A DNA stretch of 31,466 nt, taken from the IMG/VR virus record IMGVR_UViG_2645727604_000022. One strand, 5' to 3'. The stretch is from a virus. Its lineage: Duplodnaviria; Heunggongvirae; Uroviricota; Caudoviricetes. How positions within the stretch are numbered: the stretch's first letter is position 1; each line of letters begins with the position of its first letter. The translations under genes were made by a program, and so were the position numbers. Positions 1,417 to 20,248 of the stretch are shown here, piece by piece. Below the pieces are notes generated by a model. That model had not been told where the DNA came from and did no database searches. It worked only from the letters and a program-made list of their open reading frames with translations.

Positions 1417-2130
1417 CTATTCCTGTTTAAAGGCAGGAGTAATAGTGTCTTCACCTTCACTACTTGATTTTTCAGTGTTAACACGTTTTTTCATATTAGC
1501 CCCGATGTTCTTAGATGGCTGTGTTTTGATAGCTACAGTGTTTACAGTGCCATAAGAAACTAATCTGATTTGCTCAAAGCTAAGATCAAATACCAGGGAT
1601 TCGCTTGCCTCTTCTGTGTATTCGATGCCTGTTAAAACAACGTTCTCAAAAGTTTTATTTTCTGTAACAAGAAGAAAAGGCTGTCTACTGTCCATAATCT
1701 GATTCAGGTAATCTATAGCCAATGATCTTCTGTTCCCTGTCACCCCTGCACTCTTTAACAAGCCAGGATCGCTTTTAATCGGTGTTTCAGTGATCCTCCC
1801 TTTAAGAGAAAACTTATTATTCTTCACTTGAACGTGATCCGATACAGTAGCCCCATTCTCTACGGGGTAGCTTGTAACATCTGCCGAACGTCTTACGTTC
1901 ACATCGTCTACACTGTCAAAAGCCAGTGCCATATAATTTTCATAAACGTCATTACCAGAAGATGCCAGCCCACTGGTAACAATAGCAAAACCATTTTCTC
2001 CTTTTGTTTTATTGGCTTTGCTATTTTCGTTTTTTGTAGAGTTTATATCTTGTTCTGCTTTGTAAACAGCCTGAACGTGTTGTTCTGGAGTATTTGCTGC
2101 ACGTATGGTTAAAATCCCGGCGGTCGCCAT
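1417..2130 (-). CDS. Hypothetical protein (237 aa), last gene of the structural-like operon
   Basis: Long ORF in AT-rich DNA; no recognisable motif; SD is 15 nt from the ATG so the true start is uncertain. Confidence 0.55.
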   Translation of the reverse strand: MATAGILTIRAANTPEQHVQAVYKAEQDINSTKNENSKANKTKGENGFAIVTSGLASSGNDVYENYMALAFDSVDDVNVRRSADVTSYPVENGATVSDHVQVKNNKFSLKGRITETPIKSDPGLLKSAGVTGNRRSLAIDYLNQIMDSRQPFLLVTENKTFENVVLTGIEYTEEASESLVFDLSFEQIRLVSYGTVNTVAIKTQPSKNIGANMKKRVNTEKSSSEGEDTITPAFKQE

Positions 2131-2164
2131 AATAATAATTTTCCTTGCAATGTTATGGCGGGAA

Positions 2165-3991
2165 TTACCCGCCGTTAGATTGTCCTGATAAGCTGGTTAA
2201 TGTTAATGATTTCAAGAAGCTATCCCGACTTGCTCTCGCTGTAAAATCCACATAATCGCTTAATCTTGATGTGTCACTATTAATAGTAAGAGGAACCTCT
2301 GTTACCACTTCAAATGTAGGATTCAGATTGAATACAGGAGATAAATTATAAGCCGGAGTTGTCATTGCAAGATTATTTAAAGCACCCTGTTTGAGATTGG
2401 TTATCGGTGCTTCACTAACTGACATTTTTACATCTGACACAGAAGAATTATCATCGAAAAGCAATCCCTTAATCGTGTTAAAGAGAGAATGACTATTATC
2501 AGGTGTAGTTGTTGCAGTGCCAGCGCCTTTATATTGATCAGGAACGAGATTATCTAAATTCTTCTTCATCCCTTCATTGCTTAATGGCGGTGCATCACCC
2601 ATATTTTTTTGAATAGCATCTGTCTTATCATCATTACGATTAAACCAGTTTACAATCTTCATAATAGCTTCAAAGAGACTTCCTATAGCTTCTCCCAGCT
2701 TCGTAAAATACGGAGTGAGATTAGAAAGGTTTTTCATAAACTCTTCCGTTACTTTTGGATCGAGAGATTTCATAAACCCGTCTACGAATGCTACTTGCCT
2801 TGCATCAGAAAGCTGTGAAAGCTGTCTGTTTAGTTCTCTGAATTTAACGATAGATTCTTGCTGTGTTTCTGTTAGCCATTTTCCAGAGGCTTTTTGCTGA
2901 TTAATACTTTCTTGTACATCTTTAACGGAACGTTGCCAATATTTTGATGTAAGCATCAAATCATCGCCCAGATCTTCTAAACGTTGTCCAATTTGAGAAT
3001 CTGAAAACCCTTTTTTCATCATTCCATTAACAGCCTTAGAAATTAATCCGGCTGGATTATCAGCAAATTTTTTAAGGTCGCTTTTGTTAATAACACCGAT
3101 GTTTAGAAGTTCATTAATAGCGTTATCACCGCCTTTCCATTCAGATTTTCCTTTCTTGTCTTTCACCAATTCAGCTTCACTATAGGATTTTGCGGCACGT
3201 TCACGCACATCTTTCATCTGATCCAGGTATTTCCTAGCCCCTTGATCACCCATCATAGAGTCAACGCCGTTTCTATACGCCCATTCTGTAATATTATACA
3301 TCTGGTTAACGTCTACACCGCCCAGCCTTGCACGTTGAATTAGCTCCCCTTGCGTTTCAGCATTCGCAAAGCTGTTAGCCATAAATTCAGAGGTTTTACT
3401 AACAGCCATCACGCCAGCAGCCGCCGTAGCGCCTCCAAATAACAGAGCGCCCATAGTGGCGGAATTCCCTGCTCCTCCCTTAACGGGGGCTAATTGAGCT
3501 TTTCTGTTGCCATTAATCTTACGTTGTTGCTGTTGTAAGCGTTTCATCTGACTATTCATACGTGCAAGCGAGATAGCCCCTTGCTCATATTGTTTTGCTA
3601 TCTCTCTAGCCTGTGCAATAGCTTTATATTGTTCAGCTACAGAGAGGCGGTGCATTGCACTGATAGAGCTTGACACATCAAGGAGCTTTAATTCTGCTTT
3701 CTCTTTACGTGCTGCTATTTGTTGCTGTTGCCTTGCCTGTGCTCTTGCTGCGGCAGCTTGTGCTCTTTGATTTTGCTTTTCTGTTTTGGCTTTTTGCTGG
3801 GTAATCTTGTCTACTTCACTTTGTGCTTTCTTATAGCCTTTAGTGACGCTATCAAATCTTAATTTAGCTGGCTTGATGTTTTCTGCGAATTCCTTTAAGC
3901 CTGTAATAGAGTCTTTCGCTTTTTTTAAGCTGTCTTTATCTACACTAAATGTAACTGTGTTCTTAATTTTAGAAGTGTTAATTTCTAACAT
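2165..3991 (-). CDS. Hypothetical coiled-coil / glycine-zipper protein (608 aa), tape-measure-like or ejection-protein-like
   Basis: Q/A/R-rich coiled-coil stretch (QRAQAAAARAQARQQQQIAARKEKAELK), hydrophobic Gly-rich segment GALLFGGATAAAGVMAVS; SD AAGGGG 7 nt before ATG. Confidence 0.7.
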   Translation of the reverse strand: MLEINTSKIKNTVTFSVDKDSLKKAKDSITGLKEFAENIKPAKLRFDSVTKGYKKAQSEVDKITQQKAKTEKQNQRAQAAAARAQARQQQQIAARKEKAELKLLDVSSSISAMHRLSVAEQYKAIAQAREIAKQYEQGAISLARMNSQMKRLQQQQRKINGNRKAQLAPVKGGAGNSATMGALLFGGATAAAGVMAVSKTSEFMANSFANAETQGELIQRARLGGVDVNQMYNITEWAYRNGVDSMMGDQGARKYLDQMKDVRERAAKSYSEAELVKDKKGKSEWKGGDNAINELLNIGVINKSDLKKFADNPAGLISKAVNGMMKKGFSDSQIGQRLEDLGDDLMLTSKYWQRSVKDVQESINQQKASGKWLTETQQESIVKFRELNRQLSQLSDARQVAFVDGFMKSLDPKVTEEFMKNLSNLTPYFTKLGEAIGSLFEAIMKIVNWFNRNDDKTDAIQKNMGDAPPLSNEGMKKNLDNLVPDQYKGAGTATTTPDNSHSLFNTIKGLLFDDNSSVSDVKMSVSEAPITNLKQGALNNLAMTTPAYNLSPVFNLNPTFEVVTEVPLTINSDTSRLSDYVDFTARASRDSFLKSLTLTSLSGQSNGG

Positions 3992-4002
3992 TTAAAATCC
4001 CC

Positions 4003-4206
4003 TTAATCATTTTTACCACCTTCTTTACTTAAGAAATGGTGTAGAGCCTGATCAATACTCTCGTTTAATCTGAACATACGGGCTTTTACTCCTTCATATG
4101 GAACATCTAAGAGAGAACAGAGATATTTCAGATTTAACAAGCCTCTAGAATCATTAGCATCTAAATGAACGTGTACACCATTTTTTGATTTCAGAATCAC
4201 TTCCAT
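4003..4206 (-). CDS. Hypothetical small protein (67 aa)
   Basis: ORF with SD GAGAGGTGA 7 nt upstream, sits directly after the terminator that follows the 342-aa gene. Confidence 0.45.
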   Translation of the reverse strand: MEVILKSKNGVHVHLDANDSRGLLNLKYLCSLLDVPYEGVKARMFRLNESIDQALHHFLSKEGGKND

Positions 4207-4227
4207 ATTTTAATCACCTCTCAAAAT

Positions 4228-4274
4228 TTAAAAAAAAAATAAAAAAAAGGCGAAGCGTGAATACACGCCACGCC
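4228..4274 (-). terminator. Intrinsic terminator downstream of the 342-aa gene
   Basis: On the minus strand: hairpin AGGCGTGGCGTG-TATT-CACGCTTCGCCT followed by a long U-run (plus-strand A-run 4228-4247). Confidence 0.5.
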
Positions 4275-4293
4275 TCTATTACACGTTAAAATA

Positions 4294-5322
4294 TTATTTA
4301 ACAGTGATTTGAACGGAGAAGCCTACACCGTGGTTTACAACCATCTGGCTATTCTCTGTAACAACGTTAACAGCATCACCACGAGAAGATTCATAGCTGT
4401 AGCTGTACACCTCAGCAGGAGCGGTATTAATCAGTTCAAAAGTGCTGGAAGCCGCCCCATAGATGGCCTGGTAGACGTTAGAGCCTTTAGCGAATTTAGG
4501 CACGGCTACAGCGTCAGCGGTCATATGTGCAAGGTGTAGCGGATCTACCAGTTTAATAACATCAATGTTAGTTCCTGGAATAGTGAACGCTGTCACCCCC
4601 GGTAGCAGGTCACGACGCTGATACACAACGTTTCCCTCTTCCAGTGGGCTTACATACTGGAATGCGTTTGCCATACCAGCAGAGAATCGAATTGCAGAGA
4701 AGGCTTCCGGCTTACAGAAAACAACAATACGCTCTACAGCAGCCGCCTGGCTTTGTGCTTTTTCGATAATGTCAGTAGCAATCTGATCAAATTCTTTAAA
4801 AATCTTCGTGGTGTCAGTGCTGGAAGCGTTCACAGTGGCTTTCATAGCTGATACGTTAAACAGCTTGCCCCATTCGATAAGAACATCATCAGTTTTAGGC
4901 GTGTAAGTTTTACCGCTAAACAGAGATGCAGCCAACACGCTCTCTTTTGTACGCTGATACGCTACGTGGTGTTTAGCAACATAGTCAGCATAGATATCAG
5001 TGAGTGTTTCCTGAAAATCAGTGCCTGGCTTACGTTTGCCTTGAACATCAGAAGGACGGATCACATCTTCACGAAGAAAATACGGGATTTCAATCAGCCA
5101 TTCTTTACCTTGTTCTCGCTTAGTAACATTGTGTTCAGAAGAGAAACGAGAGGTTTCTTTGTTGAACAGAGATTCGTTGCTTTCGACAAGCTGGGAAACA
5201 GCTACTTTATGAGAACTAACGCCCACCGGATCAGTGAAGTCGAGGGTAGAGAGCAGATAGTTTCTAGTGCTATGCGCAGAGAACAAAGGGGCTAAATCAA
5301 CGTAATCATTACCTAGAATCAT
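4294..5322 (-). CDS. Hypothetical protein (342 aa), probably an abundant structural protein (capsid-like guess only)
   Basis: Long ORF; helical N-terminal half and beta-rich C-terminal half; followed by a strong terminator as is common for highly expressed structural genes; no diagnostic motif. Confidence 0.7.
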   Translation of the reverse strand: MILGNDYVDLAPLFSAHSTRNYLLSTLDFTDPVGVSSHKVAVSQLVESNESLFNKETSRFSSEHNVTKREQGKEWLIEIPYFLREDVIRPSDVQGKRKPGTDFQETLTDIYADYVAKHHVAYQRTKESVLAASLFSGKTYTPKTDDVLIEWGKLFNVSAMKATVNASSTDTTKIFKEFDQIATDIIEKAQSQAAAVERIVVFCKPEAFSAIRFSAGMANAFQYVSPLEEGNVVYQRRDLLPGVTAFTIPGTNIDVIKLVDPLHLAHMTADAVAVPKFAKGSNVYQAIYGAASSTFELINTAPAEVYSYSYESSRGDAVNVVTENSQMVVNHGVGFSVQITVK

Positions 5323-5340
5323 TTATTATTATTCCTTTTA

Positions 5341-5703
5341 TTAAGAAGTGAAAACCGTATTAAAGCCTTCAAGCTGGAAGCCTTTTTTAATTAATGCTGT
5401 TTTTGCTGCTTCACTTACAGCATTCAGGGCATCAGCTTTGATGCATACAAGCCCAGCATTGCTACGTAGCACATCTACAGGCTTGTTGTCTCCAGCCGTT
5501 ACAAATTCACTCATAACAACATAGATATCATCTCCTGATTCATATTTAGCGCCAGTGCTGGTGATCAAGTCTCCGCATTCAACATCAGCAGGAAGAGAAG
5601 CAAAAACCTTGCTTTCTACAGAGGCAAACGGATCAGTACAATAAGCCACCAGATCTGTAAACGTCTTTCGACTTGGAAAAAGAGCGTCTAAATCAATAAT
5701 CAT
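5341..5703 (-). CDS. Hypothetical protein (120 aa), immediately upstream of the 342-aa gene
   Basis: Strong SD TAAGGAG 8 nt before ATG; start overlaps the stop of the upstream 70-aa ORF. Confidence 0.6.
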   Translation of the reverse strand: MIIDLDALFPSRKTFTDLVAYCTDPFASVESKVFASLPADVECGDLITSTGAKYESGDDIYVVMSEFVTAGDNKPVDVLRSNAGLVCIKADALNAVSEAAKTALIKKGFQLEGFNTVFTS

Positions 5704-7425: not shown

Positions 7426-8115
7426 TTAAAATGGAATATCAAAGTCATCATACACATTTGGGTAATTCTTAGAAAAATATGCCTCAATACCATTTGGTAG
7501 CTTTAACCTGTGCTTATAGGCTAACGATGTTGCAAATTCTATAAATGATGCTCCTCCTGTTCTGGTATTCTTCTGCTTGATAATAAGAGATGCAAAATTC
7601 TCTAACACATCCTCCTCATTATCATTAGCTACCTTTTCACTTGATGAAACAGGTGTTTCTTCCGTCTCCCACGGCAAAGGCGCATCCCAATCATCAAGAA
7701 CATCAAAAGAAGGCTGTTTATGGCCTTTAGGTTGTTCCTGTGCTTCTTCTGCCTCAGAAAGATCAGAGAGTGATGATTCTCCTGGGGGAGTAATATGTGC
7801 ATCTGTGAGAGGGAGAGCATTGTAAATCAAAGATGAAATATACGGATCAGGATGTGGGGATGTTTCTAATAATCCCATCTCTTTAAGATCGTTTATCTTA
7901 CGTTTAATTGTTGACGCTGAAGACTTAAAAATCTTAGCTAATGTTTCGTGACTTTCATAACAATTAAGGTTGTTTTCCTGATAACTAAGGAATCGAAAAT
8001 AAAGCACAATATGTAATAGATCTAAATCTTTTCCTTGAGGGAATTTATCAGAATAAATCTTTGATACATTATCAAACGTGTCATAGTGTTTTGTAAAAGT
8101 TAGTTGATTAATCAT
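7426..8115 (-). CDS. Putative replication initiator / replisome-organizer-like HTH protein with SSB-like C-terminal tip (229 aa)
   Basis: HTH-like segment HETLAKIFKSSASTIKRKINDLKEMGLLE, acidic disordered middle, extreme C-terminus YDDFDIPF (E. coli SSB ends DFDDDIPF). Confidence 0.6.
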   Translation of the reverse strand: MINQLTFTKHYDTFDNVSKIYSDKFPQGKDLDLLHIVLYFRFLSYQENNLNCYESHETLAKIFKSSASTIKRKINDLKEMGLLETSPHPDPYISSLIYNALPLTDAHITPPGESSLSDLSEAEEAQEQPKGHKQPSFDVLDDWDAPLPWETEETPVSSSEKVANDNEEDVLENFASLIIKQKNTRTGGASFIEFATSLAYKHRLKLPNGIEAYFSKNYPNVYDDFDIPF

Positions 8116-8166
8116 TAAAAATCTCCTTATAAATCACGCTTAATGCGCTACTAAAGTGAATGAGGA

Positions 8167-8334
8167 TCACTTACCCTTTTTTTGTTTGATGTTCTCTGCT
8201 GCTTCAGTAATGATTTCTAACATCAAATCACTGACCATAATTTGCCTTTTCTTGGCTTCAGCAAATAAAACCTTGAAGATTTCAGGGTCAACGTGTAGGT
8301 AAGTGCGCGGAATTGGTTTCTTAGTTTCGCTCAT
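8167..8334 (-). CDS. Small ribbon-helix-helix-like (CopG/Arc-type) putative regulator, 55 aa; not in the ORF track
   Basis: Hand translation MSETKKPIPRTYLHVDPEIFKVLFAEAKKRQIMVSDLMLEIITEAAENIKQKKGK; SD AAGGAG 7 nt upstream of the ATG at 8334. Confidence 0.45.
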   Translation of the reverse strand: MSETKKPIPRTYLHVDPEIFKVLFAEAKKRQIMVSDLMLEIITEAAENIKQKKGK

Positions 8335-8353
8335 AGTTTTCTCCTTCTATTCT

Positions 8354-8542
8354 TTACTCTGTTTCAGATTCTTTTTCATTTTTTCTTAGTTCATCAATAA
8401 TCTTGAGTGCTTCATTGAAGCAAGCTGCTCGCTCTGGATAACCTCGACTCCTTGCCATATTACGATTCATTACTACTTGATGGCGTGTAAGCTCACCTTT
8501 TTTAAATGCCTCTACGACGTGTTTCGGTGTAAACCATTTCAT
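8354..8542 (-). CDS. Hypothetical small protein (62 aa), first gene of the minus-strand operon
   Basis: ORF with a candidate sigma70 promoter about 100 bp upstream. Confidence 0.45.
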   Translation of the reverse strand: MKWFTPKHVVEAFKKGELTRHQVVMNRNMARSRGYPERAACFNEALKIIDELRKNEKESETE

Positions 8543-8652
8543 AAAAAACTCCTTATTCAGTTAAAAGAAAAAACACCTTGCAAGCCTGACGGCTTCAAAG
8601 TGCATTGATTTTGATTATTTAGAGAAGAATGTTTTCTGTCCCTCTAATACCT

Positions 8653-8681
8653 ATTATTACATATAAAGAAACATTTGTCAA
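8653..8681 (-). promoter_or_regulatory. Candidate sigma70 promoter for the 8542-to-6256 operon
   Basis: On the minus strand TTGACA, 17-bp spacer, AATAAT. Confidence 0.3.
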
Positions 8682-9240
8682 TACCTTTTCACAAAAAATC
8701 TGATCTTTTTCATGCACTTACATTTTTTCTTAGCAATTCGTGCTCTCCTGTGTGGTGCTATTCTTCATTATCCGCTAAAACGCTCTAAAACGCGTTCTAA
8801 CGAGGTTTTGATAAAAGCAATACATTCCCTTATGTAATGGCTGTTTAGCTCGCCAGAGGCTTATTTAAGGGGCTTATTTTGTATTTGTTAGGTATATGAA
8901 AAGGTAATGGTAGATATAAGATAGAGAGTCACTTTATAAAACGCCCTGTAAAGCCCTGTAGTGAGTTTATTATATGTAGGCAATGCGTTTCCATTCCCTA
9001 CCCTGCTTAATGCTATTAGAGAAGCATTTAGACCCCTTATTTTTAATTAATTAAAGTATCCTCTATACATTCCTGTTATGAAACACCTCTGAATCCTTCA
9101 TAAAACACATTATGACGCAAAGAACACTTTTCTAAGGTGATTCCCTTCCTGAATGCTGTTTCTTGCGTCAAAGAGCTACACAGAGCTTATAAAGCTATTA
9201 TTAATAATAAAGTAGATAAGTAAGATAACTAAGATAGATA

Positions 9241-9660
9241 AGATTAATAAGATCAGAATTCTCTTTCGGTGTCGCCTCTGGCTTTTCCACCGAAAACAAT
9301 TACACAACTACAGAGAATAACGAGAGTTATTAAATGTAGAAAGTGGAATTGTATTGAGGCTTAGTGAAATTACACGAGGAAAGCAGAGTGTAATTGAGCT
9401 TTAGCCGCTCTCTCTTCGAGTAATTACACAACTACAGAATGTAGAAGTGGAATTAAGAGTTAGAGTTAACACATAAGCAATCAGTATGATTGGTTAGGTG
9501 ATTACTCTTCTGCGCACAGCGCAATAGATTTCTTCGTGGGCGTTATCGCCAACGAAGTTACACGAAGAAAGTAACGCTTTGCTTTCGGTGTGAGCGGAAC
9601 GGGCCAGCCACGAAGCCCAAAGGTAGCGGAGTAAGGCTGCTTGCCAGAGAGTGAAGCTAA
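9241..9660. other. Structured, relatively GC-richer non-coding block with nested hairpins and TGTGTAAT/AATTACACA motifs (possible regulatory RNA or protein-binding array)
   Basis: Hairpins TTTCGGTG...CACCGAAA, AATTACAC-N12-GTGTAATT, CTTCGTGGGCG-TTAT-CGCCAACGAAG; direct repeats AATTACACAACTACAGA at 9297 and 9422; no ORF of 60 aa or more. Confidence 0.3.
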
Positions 9661-9769
9661 CGCCGGAAGGCAAAAGATCATATATATATATAGATATAAA
9701 GAATATTATTATTATGATCTAATTAATAATCTAATATAGTTTTATTAATAGTCTTATTGTAGTTCACAG

Positions 9770-9845
9770 TGACCTACCCCCTAGCTCACTATGACCTACC
9801 CCCTAGCTCATAGTGAACTACCCCCTAGCTCATAGTGAACTACCG
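9770..9845. repeat. Iteron array: about 3.5 tandem copies of a 22-bp unit TGA(C/A)CTACCCCCTAGCTCA, next to an AT-rich tract (9660-9760); candidate replication origin
   Basis: Units start at 9770, 9792, 9814 and 9836 (22-bp period); the preceding tract is almost pure A/T including ATATATATATATAGATATAAAG. Confidence 0.6.
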
Positions 9846-10318
9846 TTACTACCAATCATCACATAGCACTCTGTGTAATGCCTTTCTATGTGTGTGCCAT
9901 AATCCCCTATATTCCCTGTGTAAATCATAGAATATCCCTAACTTATTCCTGTGTAATTCCATACTAAAAATTCAATGAAAAGTAGCTTAAAAGTGCAATT
10001 CTTACTTTCTTCACTTTTACATCACTTTCGCAAAGCCTTGTGTAGTGCGGCTTACAGAGCACCATCAGAAATTGTTGGCTAAAAATTGTTCTGCTTGTTT
10101 CTGAATGAGTTTTCTCGTTTGTGCAAATTTTAAAATTTATTTTGTTTTTACAGCCTTATTTCGTGTAATGCGTGGCATAGCAAGCCCTTTTCTTGTGTTG
10201 TCAAGACATTTGGCAACGTTCAAACATCTGTTTAGAAATGCCAAATTGTTGATCTAACAAATAAACCTGTATAAACAGAACACTATTTAATCTATTCCCC
10301 TGTGTATCCATTAGGCAT

Positions 10319-10426
10319 ACCAAATGAATACATCTAAATCGTGTAATATTCCGTACCTATAAGGCTTGAAACAGACCAAATGAATACGATATACTCATTT
10401 GCATTGGAGTAGTGCCAAATCGATAC
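10319..10426. promoter_or_regulatory. res-like recombination / autoregulatory site upstream of the serine recombinase gene
   Basis: Three direct copies of ACCAAATGAATAC-like 13-mer (10319, 10375, 10414); the middle one forms a 25-bp palindrome CAAATGAATACGATATACTCATTTG. Confidence 0.45.
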
Positions 10427-10440
10427 ATTAAGGGGATTTT

Positions 10441-10980
10441 ATGAGCAATATCGGTTATAAGCGTGTGAGCACTGTAGATCAGAACACTGATCGCCAGCTT
10501 GCAGGAGTAACGCTTGATAAAGTCTTTGAAGATAAGCTGTCAGGTAAAGACACTAACCGTCCAGGATTGCAGGCGTGTTTATCCTATCTGAGAGAAGGCG
10601 ACACCTTACACGTGCACTCTCTCGACCGTTTAGGGCGTAACACCTTAGACATTCTTGCCTTAGTGGAACAACTTAATAATCGAGGTGTAATTGTTCGATT
10701 TCATAAAGAAGGGATCATTGCAGACATTACAAGCGCGATGGGAAAAATGATGCTTACGATGTTGTCGGCAGTTGCAACGTGTGAACGTGAACTGATGTTA
10801 GAGCGTAAACGAGAAGCGCAAGCCGTCAATCCTACAAAGCGTGGTAATGGAAAAGCAGTAGATAGAGAAGGTATAAAGAAAGCCCTTTCTGATGGCCTGT
10901 CAGTGCGTAAAACCGCCGAGAGCTTTAATGTTGCTCCTTCAACGGTACAGCGAATTAAGAAGGAAGAAGAGGAGGCGTAA
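10441..10980 (+). CDS. Small serine recombinase (resolvase/invertase family), 179 aa
   Basis: N-terminus MSNIGYKRVSTVDQNTDRQ with catalytic-Ser context, FEDKLSGKDTNRPGL and GDTLHVHSLDRLGRN match the Hin/resolvase family pattern; SD AAGGGGA upstream. Confidence 0.9.
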   Translation: MSNIGYKRVSTVDQNTDRQLAGVTLDKVFEDKLSGKDTNRPGLQACLSYLREGDTLHVHSLDRLGRNTLDILALVEQLNNRGVIVRFHKEGIIADITSAMGKMMLTMLSAVATCERELMLERKREAQAVNPTKRGNGKAVDREGIKKALSDGLSVRKTAESFNVAPSTVQRIKKEEEEA

Positions 10981-12183: not shown

Positions 12184-12202
12184 AATGGTGCCGATAATAG
12201 GA
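12184..12202. repeat. attL: 19-bp copy of the tRNA-Thr 3' end
   Basis: Identical to 30021-30039. Confidence 0.6.
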
Positions 12203-12263
12203 ACAATACACATAGGCGATAAGCTTTGTTTTTGTTGCCTTTTTTATTGTTCATTTTTTATAG

Positions 12264-12288
12264 ATACCCCCAAAAGTACCCCCATATC
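12264..12288. repeat. Tandem TACCCCCA half-site motif ATACCCCCAAAAGTACCCCCATATC, left-end copy (candidate integrase arm-type site)
   Basis: Near-identical copy (21 of 22 positions) at 29889-29913 in the same orientation. Confidence 0.4.
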
Positions 12289-12313
12289 TTTTTCCGCCCC
12301 TGAAATTTGGTTG

Positions 12314-12725
12314 TTATTCATACAGCATATCAGGCGGTAACGCTCTCCCTTTAACCCACTTATTGTATGATAGTGCTATCCCACAATAAGGAATCAGCCA
12401 GCCATGAGAATGACCAGCCGCAAAAAAGAGATACTTAGCTACTTTGAACCGGATAACCTCGAATGGGTGACTGGTGAGATTGGTGCGCCGCCCATAGTGG
12501 CGTGATTGCCGCGTTACCCATGCTTTCATCCTCACCCCATACGCGATACTCGCTACCTGGATCACCTTTACGCCCTTTCTCGAACATATACAGGTGTTCG
12601 TCATTCCAGCCAAAAGCTAACTGGATCACGGCATGAAGTTTACTAAAGGGGATTTGCTCTGGAACCAGCACACGCCGCCATATAGGTGGTTTGCTGTCTC
12701 GGATGGTTATCTTTAGCTGGTACAT
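12314..12725 (-). pseudogene. Frameshifted gene resembling the pRiA4b ORF-3-like family
   Basis: N-terminal frame MYQLKITIRDSKPPIWRRVLVP...AFGWNDEHLYMF continues in a second overlapping frame carrying YLFFAAGHSHGWLI; family assignment is from memory. Confidence 0.45.
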
Positions 12726-12845
12726 GCAAATCCTGAATAAATGCGAATCGGAAGGATAACGATACTGACGTACTCACAATTCTGTAAAGGTGAATAAAGG
12801 AAATTTGCTTAATACGCATAAGTTACATGTGGAATAATCCCATAT

Positions 12846-13031
12846 CTACCTGCGCGGCGCTGGCTTCTTCCACTGGTAGGCAGGTGCTCGCATCATTTCG
12901 CGGAACCTGTCGCGCCGGGCTATATCGGCATTAACTGATCGTTCTATCTCCCGTTGATCTGCCTGTGTAAGCTGATGGCCTCCGTGCTCAAGTTTGGCGA
13001 TGGTCAATAAGGCTATTTCGCGTGGTGTCAT
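12846..13031 (-). CDS. Hypothetical small protein (61 aa)
   Basis: ORF with SD AGAGGG 8 nt upstream. Confidence 0.35.
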   Translation of the reverse strand: MTPREIALLTIAKLEHGGHQLTQADQREIERSVNADIARRDRFREMMRAPAYQWKKPAPRR

Positions 13032-13328
13032 ACGTCATACCCTCTGGAAGAATGAAACACGCCCGGATTAAATTTCATTTTTCGCGGGTATAAAAAAACG
13101 ATGGGGCGGGCAGTCCCGGATAGTCAGGGCTGTAGAGATTTGACTACCCCCTCCCCACTGGATTCAGGTTACTGCTATTCCGTTAAGCGCTGCTTACGGG
13201 GATAGCTGCGTTGTGATTTTGACCATTCAGGTCGCCGCTATTTCCTCACCGATTGGGTGCTACGCGCGCGCGTACTTGTCCCGAAATACCAGAAACCGCC
13301 AGCCAGAGGATGATTTCCCTCTGGTGGT

Positions 13329-13610
13329 CTACCTTTGCCTCTTGCCGCCATTTAACCGGAAGGCGTTACCGTTCGGTTGCGCTATCCCCATGCGGTGTTG
13401 CGTTTCGGTAACAGCTTTATGCAGGTCGCCAAATTCCTCAACCTTCACGGGCGGGCGCTTCACGTTCTCCAGACACGTTTCACGGCGGCGCTTTATCCAT
13501 TCCCGATCATCGTCCTCGGTGCATAACAGCATGACTTCCATCCATCGTGCGGCAGCTCTCCGGTATAGCCCTTTTGACTCCAGCTCTTCAGCTTTCCTGT
13601 CCCTTATCAT
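13329..13610 (-). CDS. PerC-family-like small transcriptional regulator (93 aa)
   Basis: N-terminus MIRDRKAEELESKGLYRRAAARW resembles the PerC/Pch family as recalled; SD GAGAGG 7 nt upstream. Confidence 0.5.
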   Translation of the reverse strand: MIRDRKAEELESKGLYRRAAARWMEVMLLCTEDDDREWIKRRRETCLENVKRPPVKVEEFGDLHKAVTETQHRMGIAQPNGNAFRLNGGKRQR

Positions 13611-13640
13611 TTCTGCCTCTCAGATTATATAGATAAGCAA

Positions 13641-13770
13641 AAAGGTGTTGGTTCAGTTGGTTCAGTTGGTTCAATTTGTAAAGATTGTTGTTTTTATTGT
13701 GTTTTTTCTGAAATATTGAACCAACATCAACTCATTTTGAACCAACACAGCCCAGCTCTGAACCAACAAC
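13641..13770. repeat. Iteron cluster IR-L: three tight GTTGGTTCA repeats then three spaced TGAACCAAC repeats
   Basis: Reverse complement matches cluster 20679-20799, including a 43-bp perfect terminal match. Confidence 0.65.
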
Positions 13771-13869
13771 ACAGCGATAGATTTGTGATTGGTCCGTTAT
13801 TTTCTGGCTGATATTTGAGCGTATAACAGTGTTATACAGTGGTATACTGTATGGATATTACTCACTGAT

Positions 13870-14325
13870 ATGGTCTTTGCAATGAGCAAATCTAATCTGG
13901 TCGCGTTCCGCATCCCATCTGAATTGCAGGATGAGTTTAATCGGTCTGTTCTCGCTTCTGGAGGAGATAAAACCTCCTGGCTTGTTGATGCGATTCGCAT
14001 GAAGCTGGGGCAGCCGGAAAAGTCTATTGATTCACGAATGCTTGGGCTGGTGGAGCGCATGGAAAAAGCCGCTGCGTCGCTTATTGCCGGAAAGCCGAAC
14101 ATCCCACCAAAACCATATAACGAAACGGCAGTTATAAAGATCATTGCCGATACCATCCAACAGGGATTTGATAATGGGCGTGTGATAGCTGAACGGATCA
14201 ATGAAGCAGGCTATCAAACAAAAGCTGGTAAAGCGTGGGATAAAGATATTTACAGCGCGTGGAAGCGTCAGGGAAGCAATGCTGAAAAGCTAAAAGCAGT
14301 GATTGATTGTAAGGTCAGCGTATAA
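13870..14325 (+). CDS. Mnt/Arc-like ribbon-helix-helix domain protein with C-terminal extension (151 aa)
   Basis: RHH-like N-terminus SNLVAFRIPSELQDEFNRSVLASGGDKTSWLVDAIRMKLG; no clear SD. Confidence 0.55.
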   Translation: MVFAMSKSNLVAFRIPSELQDEFNRSVLASGGDKTSWLVDAIRMKLGQPEKSIDSRMLGLVERMEKAAASLIAGKPNIPPKPYNETAVIKIIADTIQQGFDNGRVIAERINEAGYQTKAGKAWDKDIYSAWKRQGSNAEKLKAVIDCKVSV

Positions 14326-14404
14326 ACATGAGTGCCCATTGGAAAGTTGCTTGGGCCAATACCTTTATACACCAGCAGGTAGTGACGATAGGTGAGGATC
14401 AGAT

Positions 14405-14626
14405 ATGAAAGGCAGAACGCCACACATTGAACATCAAGCCAACCACTTCCCTGATGTTCGCAATGAGATGATTGCCATTCGCGGTGATATGCACGGATTG
14501 GAGCGTCGAATTATTGATAAGATTGATGAAAATAGAGATAAGGCCAGTGAAAATCAAAAGTGGATCATCGGCCTGTTGATTTTATCAATTCTTATCCCGC
14601 TACTTATCGCATTGGTCACAAAATGA
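14405..14626 (+). CDS. Small protein with C-terminal transmembrane anchor (73 aa)
   Basis: SD GAGGA 9 nt upstream; C-terminus KWIIGLLILSILIPLLIALVTK. Confidence 0.5.
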   Translation: MKGRTPHIEHQANHFPDVRNEMIAIRGDMHGLERRIIDKIDENRDKASENQKWIIGLLILSILIPLLIALVTK

Positions 14627-15146
14627 ATATCCAATGTGTATGCTGTCGATGCTACGCGCGCGTACTTGTCGCAAAATATCAGGCAAAGGCCAGATTCAGA
14701 AAGTCGTGATAATCACCAGCACAACATGAGATGTCATGTAACGCGATTGATCACACCAGATACATGTGATGGTGTACCCGCATAAAACATCGTCATAGCG
14801 CGTCCTGTGCGCACATACGCCGATAATCAACACATCACCACCACTCTGTCTCGTGTAGAGAACAGTTTCATGGTATCCCCCGCCATCGTGTGCGTACTGG
14901 TCGGACGTGGTTGCAAAATTTTTGCAACTGATACCCCTCGCGCGCGTACTGGTCACGAAATTGGTGTTTTGCTGTGGCAGTGATATCAGAAAAATCTTCC
15001 TGTTTCACATAAAGCGGATATGCGCGTACTGTAACGACCCCATCAACGGGATCGGATTTGAAATCCTGACCCAAGCTATGTACCAAATGCCATGTCTTGG
15101 ATATATGATGATTGCCATTCTAAACAAAGCTAAAGGGAGGGTTGGT

Positions 15147-15503
15147 GTGAGGGGGCAGGCAGTTATAATTATTTTGTTGGGTTTAATTGTCGCAAAGTTA
15201 TACCCGACTTTATCGATGGTGTTTTTTGCCATTATTGGCGCAGCCATCTTTACTTATATCATTAAACATACCGCCTTGTGGTTCTATAAAATTGATATAG
15301 TTCAGAAGTTTGTACGTCCTGTGTCGATGTTATTACTAGCATTAATACCAATTGGTGTTGCTTATGTAATTGATGTTTTTTACCCTTCGGACACTGAAAG
15401 GTGGTTGATAGTTTTGTATTGTTATATTGGTGTAGCTCTCTTTTGTGGATTTCATTGGTGTTTCGAAAAGATCAATGACTCTATTTCAAAGAATAAAGAT
15501 TGA
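15147..15503 (+). CDS. AT-rich small integral membrane protein with four predicted TM helices; candidate immunity / superinfection-exclusion protein (ORF track frame opens at 14907; start here assigned to GTG 15147)
   Basis: SD GGAGGG 6 nt before GTG; four hydrophobic helices; about 37% GC on sampled lines versus about 63% in the adjacent 705-aa gene. Confidence 0.6.
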   Translation: MRGQAVIIILLGLIVAKLYPTLSMVFFAIIGAAIFTYIIKHTALWFYKIDIVQKFVRPVSMLLLALIPIGVAYVIDVFYPSDTERWLIVLYCYIGVALFCGFHWCFEKINDSISKNKD

Positions 15504-15517
15504 GGCCATCCGTGGCC
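15504..15517. terminator. Short hairpin between the convergent membrane-protein and 705-aa genes
   Basis: GGCCA-TCCG-TGGCC hairpin; weak flanking U-runs. Confidence 0.3.
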
Positions 15518-15522
15518 ATTCA

Positions 15523-17640
15523 CTAGTCATTATCTGGATCATTAGATAGCCAAGTAATGATGCCCAGTCTGGCGATGGTCCGTTTTTCCTGTTCAGGAAG
15601 AGAGTTAAAAAAACTCTTCCATTGAGGGGAGCGCCTGATACGTGAATCAACAATGTGCCCAGGCGCTTTTCCGTGTAGATTTTTTACTGCGCTCTGGAAG
15701 GCTGGCGAGGCAATTAATTTATCCGCAGCATCAGCCGCCCCTGCTCCACCAGCTAATCGAGCTTTACTCGCCAATCTTGCTCCAATATCAGCCCCAGCAA
15801 TGGCTCCAAGCGATCCAAAATGAGCGCCTACCATCGTGCCTATTTTTTGAATGTGTTTTGCTGCTAGTTCGTATGGAGCTGTTACCCGATTAAATCTGTT
15901 TACAAACTCATTCAGCTTACCAGTAGATATTTCATGCGCTTTAGCATTTTTTATTGCTCTGGCAACTTTGTATACATCATATAGTCCGCTCATTGTTTCT
16001 TTTGGCAAATGTTCAGCCAAAGTCTTTAGCTGTCCACTGTGTTGCAAGTTTTGCCACCAATCTGCAAAGCCAGATGGATTAAAGTCGGCCCCACGCTTCC
16101 CAGAGGAAAGCATATCTCTTAATGCTGTTCCTACTAGCTCCCTTCGCAATGTTCTTGATGGAGTATTTTGCATAATCTCACGAAACCCTCTCGCATCACC
16201 TTTTGCCATAGATTGAAGAGAATTCGTTACTTTATACGCTATATCCCCATTAAGTGTTTTCCCGCGAAGATTTACCATTTGCCTTTCTAAGTTTTTTCTC
16301 ATAGCTACAAGGCGTTGTGCGACTTCGAAATCTCGCAAGTATCCAGTATTGGATAAGACAGATTTTTGGTCTTCAGCTAAAGCTCCATATAGTCTTGATA
16401 GCGCTTCTTTATCAGCATCTTTGTATGGCCCCTGCTTTTTATTTAGGGCATCACCAACTAAACGCCTTTGCCTGTTTAAATTTGCATACGTTAGGATTCT
16501 ATCTGGGCCGGGGTTTATTGCTGTAAAAACTCGCTTTTCTATTGGGTCAAGATTATCCCACCCTCCTAAATCATCAGCGATTTTTTCCAGCATAGTGCTT
16601 GTGTTATTTGCTTCGACTTTTGTTCTTGGTGATAGAGCGGAATCAACACGTTTATATAACTGATCACTACGGTTTTTTAGTGCTTCCATTCTACTATTTA
16701 TCTGATAAATATATTTTTCGCTCATAGCTAACGCATCTGGCGCACCAGCAACATCATCGATTATCTTGCCAGCACTAGAGGCTAATTCGCTTATTGCTTT
16801 ATCTTCTTGAGCTTTTAACGCTGATCCTGTCCGTGACTTTAGGGCTTGCTCTACAGCTTGGTATTGCTCATTTCCTGATAAATGAGAAGGAAGAACTGAA
16901 TCAACATGAAGCCTATTTGCAGCCTCAACAATTTCTTTCTGAGGTTTTAGATCTAGCCCTTCAAGCGAAGAGGCAAGATTTGGGTTGCCTTGTGCAGATA
17001 ACTTACGAATTTTCTCTTCGGCAGGAGTAATCCCCTCAATATCTGGAATCGAAGAAACATTCTTCTTGGTTAATTTCCCAGCTATTTTATTAATTGCAGG
17101 GCCAGCAAGTTCGGCTACAGGGCCAGCCACAGCGCCAATAGCAGCGCCGGAAGCAACATCGCTATTTGTTCCATTGGCTACAATAGCCCCTTCTCCAGCA
17201 CCAAGCCCTGCGGCGGCAGCCAGTCTTGCCGCCCCTTTGGGAACCTGAGAAATAATCCCACCACCACTAACAAATGGCGCTGCTTGTCCAACGAACTCAC
17301 CAACATCTTGTGCGGTTGATGGTTTTGCCGCTAACTTCTGCTGTAGAGACTGAATTGCGGCTTGCTCTTCTGGTGTCATATCCTGAAACAGGCCAACACC
17401 TTTACCAACATCCATCAATCCACTGAGAACGCCATACATAAAACGGTCGAAACCGTTAGCATTATTAACAACATTTTCCTGTCTGGAATTTTCCTCTGGT
17501 GAAACCAAAGGTGATTGCTGCTGTTCTGGTTGGGCATCAAGCACAAAACCATCAGGAAGCTGTGAACTATCAGGAAACTGTGAGTTATCAGGTTGTTCAT
17601 CGAGCACAAAACCTTCCGGTAAGATTACATTTGCTGCCAT
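15523..17640 (-). CDS. Hypothetical large Gly/Ala-rich coiled-coil protein (705 aa), last gene of the LexA-box operon
   Basis: N-terminal repeats PEGFVLDEQP / PDGFVLDAQP, long Gly/Ala zipper segments, no P-loop or nuclease motif found. Confidence 0.75.
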   Translation of the reverse strand: MAANVILPEGFVLDEQPDNSQFPDSSQLPDGFVLDAQPEQQQSPLVSPEENSRQENVVNNANGFDRFMYGVLSGLMDVGKGVGLFQDMTPEEQAAIQSLQQKLAAKPSTAQDVGEFVGQAAPFVSGGGIISQVPKGAARLAAAAGLGAGEGAIVANGTNSDVASGAAIGAVAGPVAELAGPAINKIAGKLTKKNVSSIPDIEGITPAEEKIRKLSAQGNPNLASSLEGLDLKPQKEIVEAANRLHVDSVLPSHLSGNEQYQAVEQALKSRTGSALKAQEDKAISELASSAGKIIDDVAGAPDALAMSEKYIYQINSRMEALKNRSDQLYKRVDSALSPRTKVEANNTSTMLEKIADDLGGWDNLDPIEKRVFTAINPGPDRILTYANLNRQRRLVGDALNKKQGPYKDADKEALSRLYGALAEDQKSVLSNTGYLRDFEVAQRLVAMRKNLERQMVNLRGKTLNGDIAYKVTNSLQSMAKGDARGFREIMQNTPSRTLRRELVGTALRDMLSSGKRGADFNPSGFADWWQNLQHSGQLKTLAEHLPKETMSGLYDVYKVARAIKNAKAHEISTGKLNEFVNRFNRVTAPYELAAKHIQKIGTMVGAHFGSLGAIAGADIGARLASKARLAGGAGAADAADKLIASPAFQSAVKNLHGKAPGHIVDSRIRRSPQWKSFFNSLPEQEKRTIARLGIITWLSNDPDND

Positions 17641-18923
17641 TTTCCGTTCCTGTAAATGATTTTCTGACCAGTTTTAGGGTTGGTTGCCGTTGCGCCTTCT
17701 GATATTCCTCCGGTTGCCGCTTTTGCCTGTCCAGTGCCAGCCTGTGATGTAGGCTGCCCGGAAACATCGTCAAATAGCTTCGCTTTCCTTCTTTCAAGGC
17801 TTTTTCTTAGCCCCTGAGGAATAGTTTCTCCATATGTATCGAGATACTCGTCAACCTGCTGGTTAAACTGCTGCCCCATAGCATTGGCGTTGATTTTTGC
17901 GGCGTTAACAATGTTATCCTTTGCCTCCTGCGACAGGCCGTTTCCAGCATTAAGCTGGTCTATGTATCCTTTGATTTGTCCCCATATGCCATCAGACCGC
18001 ATTACCTGAACCTGTTCGCCTTCACGAACGACTGACTGCGGGTCAAGAGATTTCATGTAGTTGAAGATAATCCCAAGTTGGGCAGCGCCAGTATTTACCT
18101 TGCTAAGGGCTTGCAGAGAGTTTGCCGCCGCTCTGACAGAGTTATAATTTTTGCCAAAATTGGTAATGTCAGAATTTAATCCCTTAATTAAGTCTGCTGA
18201 CGGCTTACCTTTTTGCCCCAGCTCCATTAGCTTCAATCCCATCTCATCTGAGTGAATTTGTGCTCGCTGAGCCCTGTCTAGTTGAGCGTTCTGGATATTT
18301 GCCCATCCTCTCGCGTTCTCCATGTCAGCCTGACGCATACTTTCATCCAGTCGCCCTTGCTCAAGTCGACGACCTTCCATTTGATCTTTGATATCGAAAT
18401 ACTTCTCATGACCGAGAGAAAACAGTGCCATACTACCAGCAAGCCGCTGGAACCCCTGTGGATCATTAACATGCATTTCGGCAACAGACTCAGGAGAAAT
18501 TCCCAAGCGACGCATTTCATCTTCGTTATCTGCTATGAATTTTCCAAATGCCCCAGTTCCGAGCGAAGATGCGATTTGAGCACTAGTCGCAAGATGACCA
18601 ATAGAATTTCTCTGGTCGTCATCAATAAAGCCCATCCCTTTCTGAACGCTTTCAAATTCTTCTGGATACTCAGAAATAAGACTGCGCATTTTGTTTCTGT
18701 CTCCAGACTCAAAAGCCCCGGCATATGCTTTCTGAAACTCTGCTTTACGCTGTTGTTGACGTGCCTGCTGATTAATCTCAGCAACGCCTCTTAGCCCCTG
18801 TAGCGCCATTAAACCTACGTTTGGCTGCTGCTGATACTGCACAGGCTGAGGAACGGAAGAACGAGGAGCATTATCATTTTGCGGTGCCATGCTAGGCAGC
18901 CCGCCAAGTTGCCATGTCGCCAT
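17625..18923 (-). CDS. Hypothetical coiled-coil protein (432 aa)
   Basis: Q-rich N-terminus; overlaps neighbouring genes by a few nt (translational coupling). Confidence 0.75.
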   Translation of the reverse strand: MATWQLGGLPSMAPQNDNAPRSSVPQPVQYQQQPNVGLMALQGLRGVAEINQQARQQQRKAEFQKAYAGAFESGDRNKMRSLISEYPEEFESVQKGMGFIDDDQRNSIGHLATSAQIASSLGTGAFGKFIADNEDEMRRLGISPESVAEMHVNDPQGFQRLAGSMALFSLGHEKYFDIKDQMEGRRLEQGRLDESMRQADMENARGWANIQNAQLDRAQRAQIHSDEMGLKLMELGQKGKPSADLIKGLNSDITNFGKNYNSVRAAANSLQALSKVNTGAAQLGIIFNYMKSLDPQSVVREGEQVQVMRSDGIWGQIKGYIDQLNAGNGLSQEAKDNIVNAAKINANAMGQQFNQQVDEYLDTYGETIPQGLRKSLERRKAKLFDDVSGQPTSQAGTGQAKAATGGISEGATATNPKTGQKIIYRNGKWQQM

Positions 18924-19600
18924 TAGAATCCAAGCCCCCCAACAAGACCAATAAGCCCACCACCAATAGCGCCGGCCGCAGTTCCTATTCCAGGAACAAC
19001 GGAACCAAGTTGCGCACCCGCTAAAGCGCCTGATGCTGCCCCACCAATACCACGCGCAAGACTGGATGGCTGCTGCGCCTGACCTGCACGAATAGCGCCA
19101 AGCCCCTGCAAGAGTTGTCCGGTATTATTGGCGTAGTTTTGCCCTGCCGTTGCCTGCCCTGATGCCGCATTCATCCCGACATTTAGCAGGTTTCCATAAT
19201 TTTGCATTTGCCCACTAAGCCAATTGTTATAAAGCATGGGCGCAATGGAAGATAACTGGTTACTGGTAGCTGTTGAGCCAAGCCCCCCGGTAGCTTCTGC
19301 TGAGACAAGGTTCTGATAACGGGCCTGATCTGCCTGTGTTTTATATAAACCAGAACCAAAGAAATCATTCGCGGCTTTATTCTGCCCTTCCAGAGTCATC
19401 AGTCCTTGTAGTTGTTGTAAAGCAGGCAATCCGACTTCTGCATACGGCTTGAGATTATTCATCACCGTATTCCACTGCTCGCGCTGCAAATCAATTGCCT
19501 GCTGCTGGGCCTTCGCCTGAGCTTTAGAGGCACCACCATCACCGCCTTTTTCGTATACGGCACGATTGAGATGTTTATGAGCTATATGGGTAATTAACAT
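18923..19600 (-). CDS. Hypothetical protein with extremely Gly-rich hydrophobic C-terminus (225 aa)
   Basis: C-terminus GIGGAASGALAGAQLGSVVPGIGTAAGAIGGGLIGLVGGLGF. Confidence 0.7.
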   Translation of the reverse strand: MLITHIAHKHLNRAVYEKGGDGGASKAQAKAQQQAIDLQREQWNTVMNNLKPYAEVGLPALQQLQGLMTLEGQNKAANDFFGSGLYKTQADQARYQNLVSAEATGGLGSTATSNQLSSIAPMLYNNWLSGQMQNYGNLLNVGMNAASGQATAGQNYANNTGQLLQGLGAIRAGQAQQPSSLARGIGGAASGALAGAQLGSVVPGIGTAAGAIGGGLIGLVGGLGF

Positions 19601-20055: not shown

Positions 20056-20071
20056 GCGATGCCATCCATTT

Positions 20072-20233
20072 TCACATACAGCCTGCCAGCGCCTTATCTA
20101 TTAACCCTCGTGCAATTTCATGCAGAGTTGGCGCTACTCCAATTCCTGATTTTTTACGCTGCTCTTCCTGAATTTTCTTTATCGCTTCCATTTGCTTCTC
20201 ACTTATCAATACCGGCTTTACTGAAATAGCCAT
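20072..20233 (-). CDS. Small RHH-like putative regulator (53 aa), first gene of the operon; not in the ORF track
   Basis: Hand translation MAISVKPVLISEKQMEAIKKIQEEQRKKSGIGVAPTLHEIARGLIDKALAGCM; GGGGG 5 nt before ATG. Confidence 0.45.
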   Translation of the reverse strand: MAISVKPVLISEKQMEAIKKIQEEQRKKSGIGVAPTLHEIARGLIDKALAGCM

Positions 20234-20248
20234 AACGCCCCCTTAGAA

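Follow-up and report, generated by a model that had tools for sequence, protein, structure and literature searches.

The 31,466-nucleotide stretch analysed here (the window; IMG/VR record IMGVR_UViG_2645727604_000022) is a segment of Escherichia chromosome adjoining a tRNA-Thr(CGT) gene (30023-30098, minus strand), and its first part, from before position 1 to ~12.2 kb, belongs to an integrated phage satellite of ~12 kb, called element A. Within this satellite, positions 8543-10440 form a gene-free region of 1.9 kb that is probably its central noncoding control region, the core of which (9673-9844) would be the origin of replication. According to this explanation, which rests on sequence comparison, the N-terminal winged-helix domain of a Rep-like protein encoded by the satellite would bind four in-phase iterons beside an 87-bp A+T tract, and Rep would then oligomerise on the iterons, along one face of the helix, and melt the tract. 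The replisome would be borrowed from the host or from an infecting phi92/phAPEC8-like helper phage (Stephanstirmvirinae) endowed with primase-helicase and polymerase, because genes for a helicase, primase or loader are missing from the satellite. Recruitment is likely to go through the C-terminal domain of Rep, which is interchangeable, and through the ...D(F/S)(D)IPF tip of Rep, which resembles that of SSB. In addition, a leftward promoter with a leader attenuator would drive the rep operon, and a gamma-delta-type resolvase acting at a res-like site would resolve the replicated multimers.

An earlier reading of the letters of the window (the sequence-only reading) had proposed an origin of the iteron type that includes an unwinding tract and depends on the gene at 7426-8115. 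This proposal is now supported by the co-variation of Rep with the iterons and by family matches that are restricted to initiators.

The A+T tract, the iterons and their pairing with Rep

About 50 related loci, falling into a close family and a distant subfamily, were compared. The candidate origin consists of two adjoining modules (Table 1). The near-pure A/T tract that had been placed at 9660-9760 does exist, but its limits are 9673-9759, since 9660-9760 is only 80% A+T; the tandem 22-bp iterons, previously counted as about 3.5 copies at 9770-9845, were found again and refined to 3.9 copies at 9760-9844. The four units (TAGTTCACAGTGACCTACCCCC, TAGCTCACTATGACCTACCCCC, TAGCTCATAGTGAACTACCCCC and TAGCTCATAGTGAACTACCGTT) each contain an internal near-palindrome, TCAC(A/T)(A/G)TGA, and the array has the layout by which such origins are recognized, i.e. 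at least three tandem repeats of ~17-22 bp in helical phase. In every central segment read, whether by means of an anchor (22 close-family loci) or directly (5 loci of the distant subfamily), the A+T tract precedes the first iteron set.

The iteron array (9759-9843) forms in its turn an imperfect palindrome of 40 nt: iteron 2 has the core TCACTATGA, which exactly reverse-complements the core shared by iterons 3-4, TCATAGTGA, and the core of iteron 1, TCACAGTGA, is nearly palindromic on its own. Fold z-scores of this palindrome go down to -12.9, and it could allow cruciform extrusion. A function of the iterons as arm-type integrase sites was ruled out, the array being >2 kb from the att repeat at 12184-12202.

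Comparison of the loci ties this DNA to Rep. The Rep proteins are mosaics in which at least five unrelated N-terminal winged-helix classes (A-E) are combined with three C-terminal classes, and the iteron sets, which are also of five kinds (the classes other than A having 3-6 copies and periods of 18-24 bp), form an array in the stretch that separates the GC-rich block from the conserved DNA on the right. In 23 of the 26 distinct architectures, the iteron set adjoining the A+T tract and the Rep binding domain belong to one class, as against a mean of 6.7 and a maximum of 17 in 100,000 shuffles of the labels, a test that overstates independence because the loci share ancestry and from which no formal probability is derived. 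The mosaic structure nevertheless shows repeated independent joint changes of Rep and iteron class. The window itself combines a class-A Rep with four class-A iterons and no iterons of any other class.

The protein points in the same direction. All five N-terminal classes have PHROG matches only to families of replication initiation, O-like and DnaD-like loader proteins (E = 1e-10 to 1e-5); in Pfam, Rep matches HTH_36, at or just below the Pfam cut-off in most classes. Together with the pairing, these matches indirectly support Rep as the putative cognate initiator that would bind the adjacent iterons. All Rep variants (the homologues in L001-L014), with their three unrelated C-terminal classes, end in DFDIPF, YDSIPF or YDSLPF. 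The C-terminal tip of E. coli SSB is DDDIPF, and SSB recruits replication proteins through this tip (PMC5872125), which suggests that Rep, by imitating this tip with its IPF tail, may attract replication proteins that bind SSB.

Several points weigh against an origin served by this protein. Neither a DnaA box (TTWTNCACA) nor an IHF site (WATCAANNNNTTR) occurs in 8543-10440; DnaA boxes or IHF sites are present in many, not all, iteron-type theta origins. The iterons are 1.6 kb from rep, farther than in most iteron replicons, three of the 26 architectures have a non-cognate first set, some loci keep one cognate iteron only, and the ancestry shared by the loci limits the shuffle test in the way just stated. 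As to Rep, hmmscan gave no Pfam match of the satellite proteins to RepA_N (up to E = 10), Phage_rep_O, Rep_3 or RepC, the NCBI annotation is 'transcriptional regulator', and an AlphaFold2 model built from the single sequence (the available homologues being near-identical) was unusable, with a pLDDT of 40.9. Searches with Rep returned no match in the PDB sequences and no useful match in NCBIfam.

The iteron sets always follow the order A-D-B-C-A-E, sets being missing in different loci; this order and the orientation are the same in 43/43 loci scored, where the cassettes vary by deletion or duplication only. Metagenome loci L027, L036, L060, L097 and L098 have up to five classes in tandem, e.g. 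AAAA-D-BB-CC-AA-EE, and other loci look like deletion derivatives that put the cognate class beside the A+T tract. A tentative interpretation, which is possible though not favoured, is that of a multi-specificity cassette array, in which up to five sets would each match a different Rep domain, the set in use would be the one placed beside the unwinding tract, and replicon specificity would be switched quickly by swaps of the rep 5′ end together with deletions in the array that move another set to the first place.

The satellite, its distribution and the phage nucleases

Element A begins with a tyrosine integrase (1-1335), followed by a Dit-like tail protein, a tape-measure-like protein and a lambda gpE-type capsid protein; beyond the capsid come small open reading frames (ORFs), the 229-aa HTH_36 protein (Rep), ORFs of 55 and 62 aa, the gene-free 1.9 kb and a serine recombinase. 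No helicase, primase or loader was detected among its ORFs by Pfam and PHROG profile matching. Its structural genes (1417-5703, minus strand), which encode decoration-like and capsid proteins, then the tape measure and the tail-tube initiator, have the same gene order as in the helper; portal and terminase are missing, and a tape measure encoded by a satellite is unusual.

The 19-bp direct repeat of the tRNA-Thr 3′ end (first copy, Table 1) marks the tRNA-side end of the satellite and its junction with a neighbouring P22/P1-type prophage (12203-30020), which has its own integrase and C4/isrK RNAs. This complete prophage sits between the satellite and tRNA-Thr, bracketed by the 19-bp repeats, so that the thrW site is occupied in tandem. 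Its segment 25996-26184 (minus strand) has Rfam matches to the C4 antisense RNA (80 bits) and to the Hfq-binding RNA isrK (63 bits), i.e. a P1/P22-type immunity RNA pair.

The gene-free region is present in 751 of the 5426 complete E. coli genomes (~1 in 7), pathogenic lineages included, and 1065 of its 1067 copies in these genomes are chromosomal. Among the strains that carry the satellite are MS15052, BEN2908, NC101 and O104:H4 C227-11. The two 'plasmid' matches correspond to a chromosome-sized record and to the whole element inserted in an IncF plasmid; never was the region found as the replicon of a free plasmid, in the complete E. coli genomes or in the plasmid search. Likewise, a search for circular episomal contigs revealed no terminal overlaps in 17 homologous metagenome contigs. 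Because free plasmid copies, a DnaA box and genes for a helicase, primase or loader are all lacking, replication is probably helper-dependent and not plasmid-like. The sequence-only reading had considered an autonomous, phage-plasmid-like replicon or a satellite-like element: the former is not supported by the data on chromosomal location, contigs, DnaA boxes and gene content, while the latter agrees with both the analysis and the literature (PMC10448857).

Related elements are located at tRNA-Thr, tRNA-Gly and tRNA-Leu and beside thiM, and share a common layout, in which small ORFs are followed by 1.4-2.6 kb of gene-free DNA and a serine recombinase. The metagenome loci stem from a 17-mer scan with many chance matches, which were removed by a BLAST filter before use; the scan of genome contigs with Rep gave one locus only. 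In E. coli CH423, near tRNA-Gly (L013, 4501-4717), the conserved island equivalent to window positions 9918-10092 stands alone (~79-84% identity), with a tyrosine recombinase and IS3 remnants as neighbours and the rest of the region absent; it may be what is left of a decayed element, or else a piece that moves independently.

The Dit-like (tail-tube initiator), tape-measure and capsid proteins of the satellite are homologues of inny_106, inny_105 and inny_96 (60%, 28-53% and 23% identity, respectively), and because of this homology with phage inny, the Stephanstirmvirinae are likely helpers; the primase-helicase of inny is inny_130. A tblastn search of phages with the Rep classes showed that lytic myoviruses of this group (inny, muut, Mt1B1_P17 and BI-EHEC) encode chimeras of 328-367 aa, made of two tandem satellite Rep binding domains and then a MUG113/T5orf172 nuclease domain (GIY-YIG superfamily), this C-terminal domain matching T5-type homing endonucleases. 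The binding-domain pairs are E+D in inny, B+D in muut and C+D in Mt1B1_P17; inny gp184 and Mt1B1_P17 QNJ49226 show two HTH_36 domains plus MUG113/T5orf172. DNA identity between chimeras and satellite rep genes is 93-99% (353 bp at 99.2% for L007 versus Mt1B1_P17, 261 bp at 98.9% for L005 versus inny), one domain is identical over 104/104 aa, and the second, class-D binding domain matches satellite class-D Rep genes with the same 93-99% DNA identity. Furthermore, a satellite gene of 55 aa is identical to inny_185 over residues 1-53 (53/53 aa; 98.3% nucleotide identity over 230 bp), and inny_185 (MN850601 120587-120769) is directly upstream of the chimeric nuclease gene of inny, so the phage seems to have captured a contiguous piece comprising the 55-aa gene and the 5′ segment of rep. 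Altogether, some lytic phages appear, from these similarities, to attack satellite DNA with nucleases into which the origin-binding domain of the satellite itself has been incorporated.

Among 50,697 phage records, tblastn disclosed no nuclease cognate to class A, the only match of the window Rep being one of 34% to the class-E domain of inny. In the same records, the gene-free region had no nucleotide match (megablast, blastn), and its comparison with the complete inny genome gave nothing beyond 22-bp chance matches.

Noncoding modules and alternative explanations

The earlier statement that no ORF of at least 60 aa exists on either strand holds between 8542 and 10441, two minus-strand ORFs of 59 aa (9494-9673 and 9502-9681) being just below the threshold. 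Protein-coding readings of the region were ruled out, as these two ORFs are not conserved. Comparison of 34 distinct homologous copies shows a longest ORF that changes between copies, and single-base indels occur throughout the block at 9241-9672, which is taken as noncoding because of these indels and of the lack of a conserved ORF. A coding role for the widely conserved island on the other side of the iterons is argued against by single-base indels in its A-runs.

The block corresponds to the GC-richer hairpin block that had been recognized at 9241-9660. It has 43.5% G+C, versus 36% for the whole region, and folds as RNA with minimum free energies of -151.3 kcal/mol on the plus strand (z = -7.4) and -129.3 kcal/mol on the minus strand (z = -6.3), none of 100 shuffles having folded as well. 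A ~124-bp duplication with 17-nt anchors at 9298-9314 and 9422-9438 is variably present inside the block (missing in L002, L057, L063 and L115), and the part 9470-9672 hardly varies; the distant subfamily has a diverged counterpart in the same place, sharing GCGCACAGCGCA and TGTGAGCGG.

Given its fold and its near-invariance in spite of being noncoding, the block could alternatively be the source of a large structured RNA (9241-9672), the main product of the region, acting either as a primer or pre-primer that starts from 8808-8836 and runs into the origin or as a regulatory RNA. A conserved promoter-like element aimed at the block and the higher stability of the plus strand, by 22 kcal/mol, are in line with this idea. 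However, folding far better than that of shuffles is seen on the minus strand too, as is expected of DNA palindromes, no terminator is predicted, and the sequence at this position is largely different in the distant subfamily. An Rfam scan, a check that the sequence-only reading had named, found nothing in 8100-10700 at gathering scores (Rfam 15) and, at E up to 10, only two chance-level eukaryotic matches (E > 5). The 34 copies of the block are almost invariant and provide no varying pairs in which covariation could be scored, and the neighbouring island (9935-10100) yields no consensus RNA structure (-3.8 kcal/mol, no compensatory pair). An RNA as main product is thus considered unlikely. 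As to the antisense or regulatory RNA that the sequence-only reading had thought possible, the block may act either as RNA or as DNA hairpins, both strands folding well.

Table 1. Features of the gene-free region and of its surroundings, with positions in the window, and consensus sequences of the iteron classes
Feature	Position	Strand	Basis or remarks
A+T-rich tract, candidate DNA-unwinding element	9673..9759	.	87.4% A+T; GATC at 9676 and 9716
Class-A iterons, 22-bp period, 3.9 copies	9760..9844	+	TRF score 126, 89% matches
Rep-like initiator, 229 aa	7426..8115	-	N-terminal winged helix (class A), acidic linker, C-terminal domain ending ...DDFDIPF
Iteron class A			Consensus TAGCTCAYWRTGAMCTACCCCC
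Iteron class B			Consensus TTGATAGGGGTA
Iteron class C			Consensus TTCTGTRGGGGTG
Iteron class D			Consensus GGAAMTCATTTCCTAGGTA
Iteron class E			Consensus GTAAC-N5-GTTAC
GC-richer self-complementary block	9241..9672	.	Fold z-scores; 34 distinct copies almost identical
GTG(T/C)AAT copies	9297..10347	both	Enrichment and strand pattern
GTG(T/C)AAT left of iterons	9299, 9369, 9423, 9558	-	Sole plus-strand copy (9387) is a hairpin partner
GTG(T/C)AAT right of iterons	9872, 9917, 9950, 10162, 10340; degenerate 10039	+	All on plus strand
Most widely conserved island of the family	9945..10086	.	81-92% identity in distant relatives
55-aa ORF, ribbon-helix-helix-like by eye, just upstream of rep	8167..8334	-	No family match
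62-aa ORF, first gene of leftward operon	8354..8542	-	Annotated, kept in all related loci; no family match
Leader hairpin then T-run, terminator-/attenuator-like, between leftward promoter and 62-aa gene	8563..8602	-	Read from sequence
Leftward sigma-70 promoter TTGACA-17 nt-AATAAT, upstream TG	8653..8681	-	11/12 consensus-scan matches; -35 TTGACA invariant in both subfamilies
Direct repeats CTAAAACGC (8775-8805), then promoter-like TTGATA-17-TATGTA (8808-8836)	8775..8836	+	TRF; near-invariant columns in diverged loci
Candidate res/autoregulatory site	10227..10430	+	CCAAATGAATAC-type half-sites at 10241, 10320, 10376 and 10414
Promoter TTGAAA-18-TATACT	10366-10395	+	Promoter scan, 10/12 matches
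28-bp dyad	10376-10403	.	Overlaps recombinase promoter
Small serine recombinase, resolvase type, 179 aa	10441..10980	+	Pfam Resolvase 1.1e-33, C-terminal HTH_7 and HTH_38
tRNA-Thr 3′-end direct repeat, 19 bp	12184-12202; second copy 30021-30039	.	Local BLAST of 29951-30110 versus window

At the left end of the region, the leader hairpin that follows the leftward promoter has an invariant stem and a loop that varies (TGAC, TTGTTG, C-TTG) over 10 diverged loci, and may act as an attenuator. The element at 8808-8836, which the promoter scan did not call, would be a rightward promoter-like site aimed into gene-free DNA. The conserved promoters and the attenuator, the NCBI name of Rep and the lack of DnaA boxes and of replisome genes agree with a second alternative, in which the repeats are operators and the 229-aa protein regulates transcription, the region serving as a switch with divergent promoters for the leftward operon and the recombinase. 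The repeats, however, are >1 kb from both conserved promoters and always come after the A+T tract, each binding-domain class matches initiator families only, the C terminus of Rep mimics the SSB tip (PMC5872125), and the phage nuclease chimeras follow the precedent of the origin-directed nuclease Odn described below. A switch of this kind has, in our judgement, a small chance of being the right explanation, similar to that of the structured RNA.

About ten copies of a short motif in both orientations had been reported. The number is correct for the motif with one mismatch (10 sites, 9299-10347) or for its core GTGTAA, but not for the exact TGTGTAAT, which has four copies in the region and five in the window versus 1.16 expected. 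The enrichment itself was borne out when computed: GTGTAA has 10 sites in 1.05 kb, whereas its frequency in the remainder of the window predicts 0.52 (Poisson P = 2e-10). The strand of the motif flips at the iterons in 14/14 loci examined, including the distant subfamily, in which the left copies read GTGCAAT; the GTGYAAT arrangement is symmetric about the candidate origin and outward-pointing. The motif was rejected as a helper-phage promoter element (68 copies versus 48 expected in the complete inny genome, no strand bias, none upstream of late genes), and a comparison by eye with Tus/Ter sites and with LexA, TyrR and CpxR boxes gave a poor resemblance, which was rejected. Possible functions of the hairpin-rich block and the GTGYAAT repeats are those of accessory protein sites or of priming/loading signals.

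Repeats and a structured block might also form a pac or cos packaging site for a helper terminase, since a satellite without terminase genes needs a packaging signal somewhere and the block is the least variable DNA of the region. This is quite improbable, as neither the phage collection nor the inny genome has nucleotide similarity to the region beyond the 22-bp chance matches, and the repeats co-vary with Rep and not with any terminase.

The right end of the region goes with the recombinase. The best solved relatives of this protein are the gamma-delta and Tn3 resolvases (E = 4e-29), and loci with another recombinase type have a different repeat set, GTAGTGAT/ATCACTAC, in the last 200 bp. 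Because of this kinship and of the co-varying repeats, the 200 bp next to the recombinase gene resemble a res site and point to multimer resolution; one clear 28-bp dyad and three further half-site copies may correspond to the three dimer-binding subsites that a res site has upstream of its gene. A resolvase-type recombinase with co-varying repeats fits a replicating circular stage of the satellite. That the region is instead a substrate of this recombinase, an invertible or shufflable cassette segment, is the least credible of the alternatives, for although the recombinase gene abuts the region, cassette number varies and short inverted repeats flank the iterons, cassette order and orientation are constant in all 43 loci with only deletion or duplication, the nearest relatives of the recombinase are cointegrate resolvases, and its co-varying repeats are confined to the last 200 bp.

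Known systems and significance

Phage ICP1 encodes Odn, in which a RepA-type binding domain is joined to a T5orf172 nuclease and which cuts the PLE origin at the RepA-bound iterons (PMC8263062). The PLE/RepA system of V. cholerae resembles the origin and initiator proposed here in that the iterons of the origin lie within extensive noncoding DNA of an integrated satellite whose helper is a lytic myovirus, the N-terminal binding domain of the initiator is exchangeable and varies together with the origin, and the helper has a chimera of this domain with a T5orf172 nuclease (PMC8263062). The two systems differ in host and helpers (E. coli and Stephanstirmvirinae in the present case) and in the profile scored by Rep (HTH_36, not RepA_N, with hmmscan). 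In addition, the coliphage chimeras have two binding domains and 93-99% DNA identity to the satellite, as against 42% aa identity in the case of Odn, many E. coli satellites carry several iteron classes in a fixed order, and the E. coli satellite encodes its own capsid, decoration, tape-measure and tube-initiator homologues.

The element family was predicted in 2023 by Barth, Dunham and Seed, who listed 224 putative satellites of E. coli, in which RepA is modular, and found odn-like genes in Inny, Muut and Mt1B1_P17, together with tRNA integration and Dec, MCP, TMP and baseplate genes in the same family, and who independently proposed that the coliphage proteins target RepA or the origin of these satellites (PMC10448857). 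The protein encoded at 7426-8115 is called RepA in their work, where RepA_N was assigned by HHsearch, an assignment that hmmscan did not reproduce up to E = 10; the second nuclease binding domain was described there as having no detectable satellite cognate (PMC10448857). The main text of that article does not contain the terms 'iteron' or 'noncoding' and maps no origin in E. coli satellites (PMC10448857), and a link between Stephanstirmvirinae and satellites was not found beyond it in the literature searched. Since the family and the idea of an arms race were already known, the present contribution consists in mapping the origin, defining the classes of iterons and showing how these pair with Rep.

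As to origins outside satellites, ori-lambda has about four iterons with dyad symmetry beside an A+T tract, and protein O is iteron-specific in its N-terminal and partner-specific in its C-terminal part. The satellite shares the combination of iterons and A+T tract, the modular initiator and the PHROG 'O-like' matches, but its candidate origin is outside the initiator gene, in noncoding DNA, and it has no P-like loader and no Phage_rep_O match. In the IncQ oriV, 3.5 iterons that repeat every 22 bp adjoin priming signals capable of forming hairpins. With this oriV and with iteron plasmids (pSC101, R6K, P1 and F), the satellite has in common in-phase repeats of 17-22 bp beside an A+T element and, presumably, a cognate Rep; in contrast to the iteron plasmids, it lacks DnaA boxes, only one winged-helix domain is present in its Rep, which matches neither Rep_3 nor RepC, and the region was never found as the replicon of a free plasmid. 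The right end recalls the res/resolvase system of Tn3 and gamma-delta, by a recombinase of ~180 aa with half-sites and a 28-bp dyad directly upstream, over the promoter; unlike these transposons, the satellite has no transposase, and its recombinase would have a presumed role in multimer resolution.

ICP1 versus PLE is the only worked-out case of a phage turning the origin-binding domain of a satellite into a weapon. For E. coli, a counterpart was put forward in 2023 on the basis of protein domains, without the target DNA, and the origin map presented here supplies the missing target; the origin, the five iteron classes and the matching Reps make the arms-race prediction directly testable in E. 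coli. If the interpretation as a multi-specificity cassette array is true, switching of specificity could let a satellite escape nucleases built from two stolen Rep domains or make its replication in trans by a co-resident satellite possible, and the window, having class A only, would represent a variant beyond the recognition of all four known phage nucleases. Phages of the phi92/phAPEC8 type, the candidate helpers, are used in phage-therapy collections and ~1 in 7 complete E. coli genomes carry the region, so satellite carriage and origin class could affect the efficacy of such phages.

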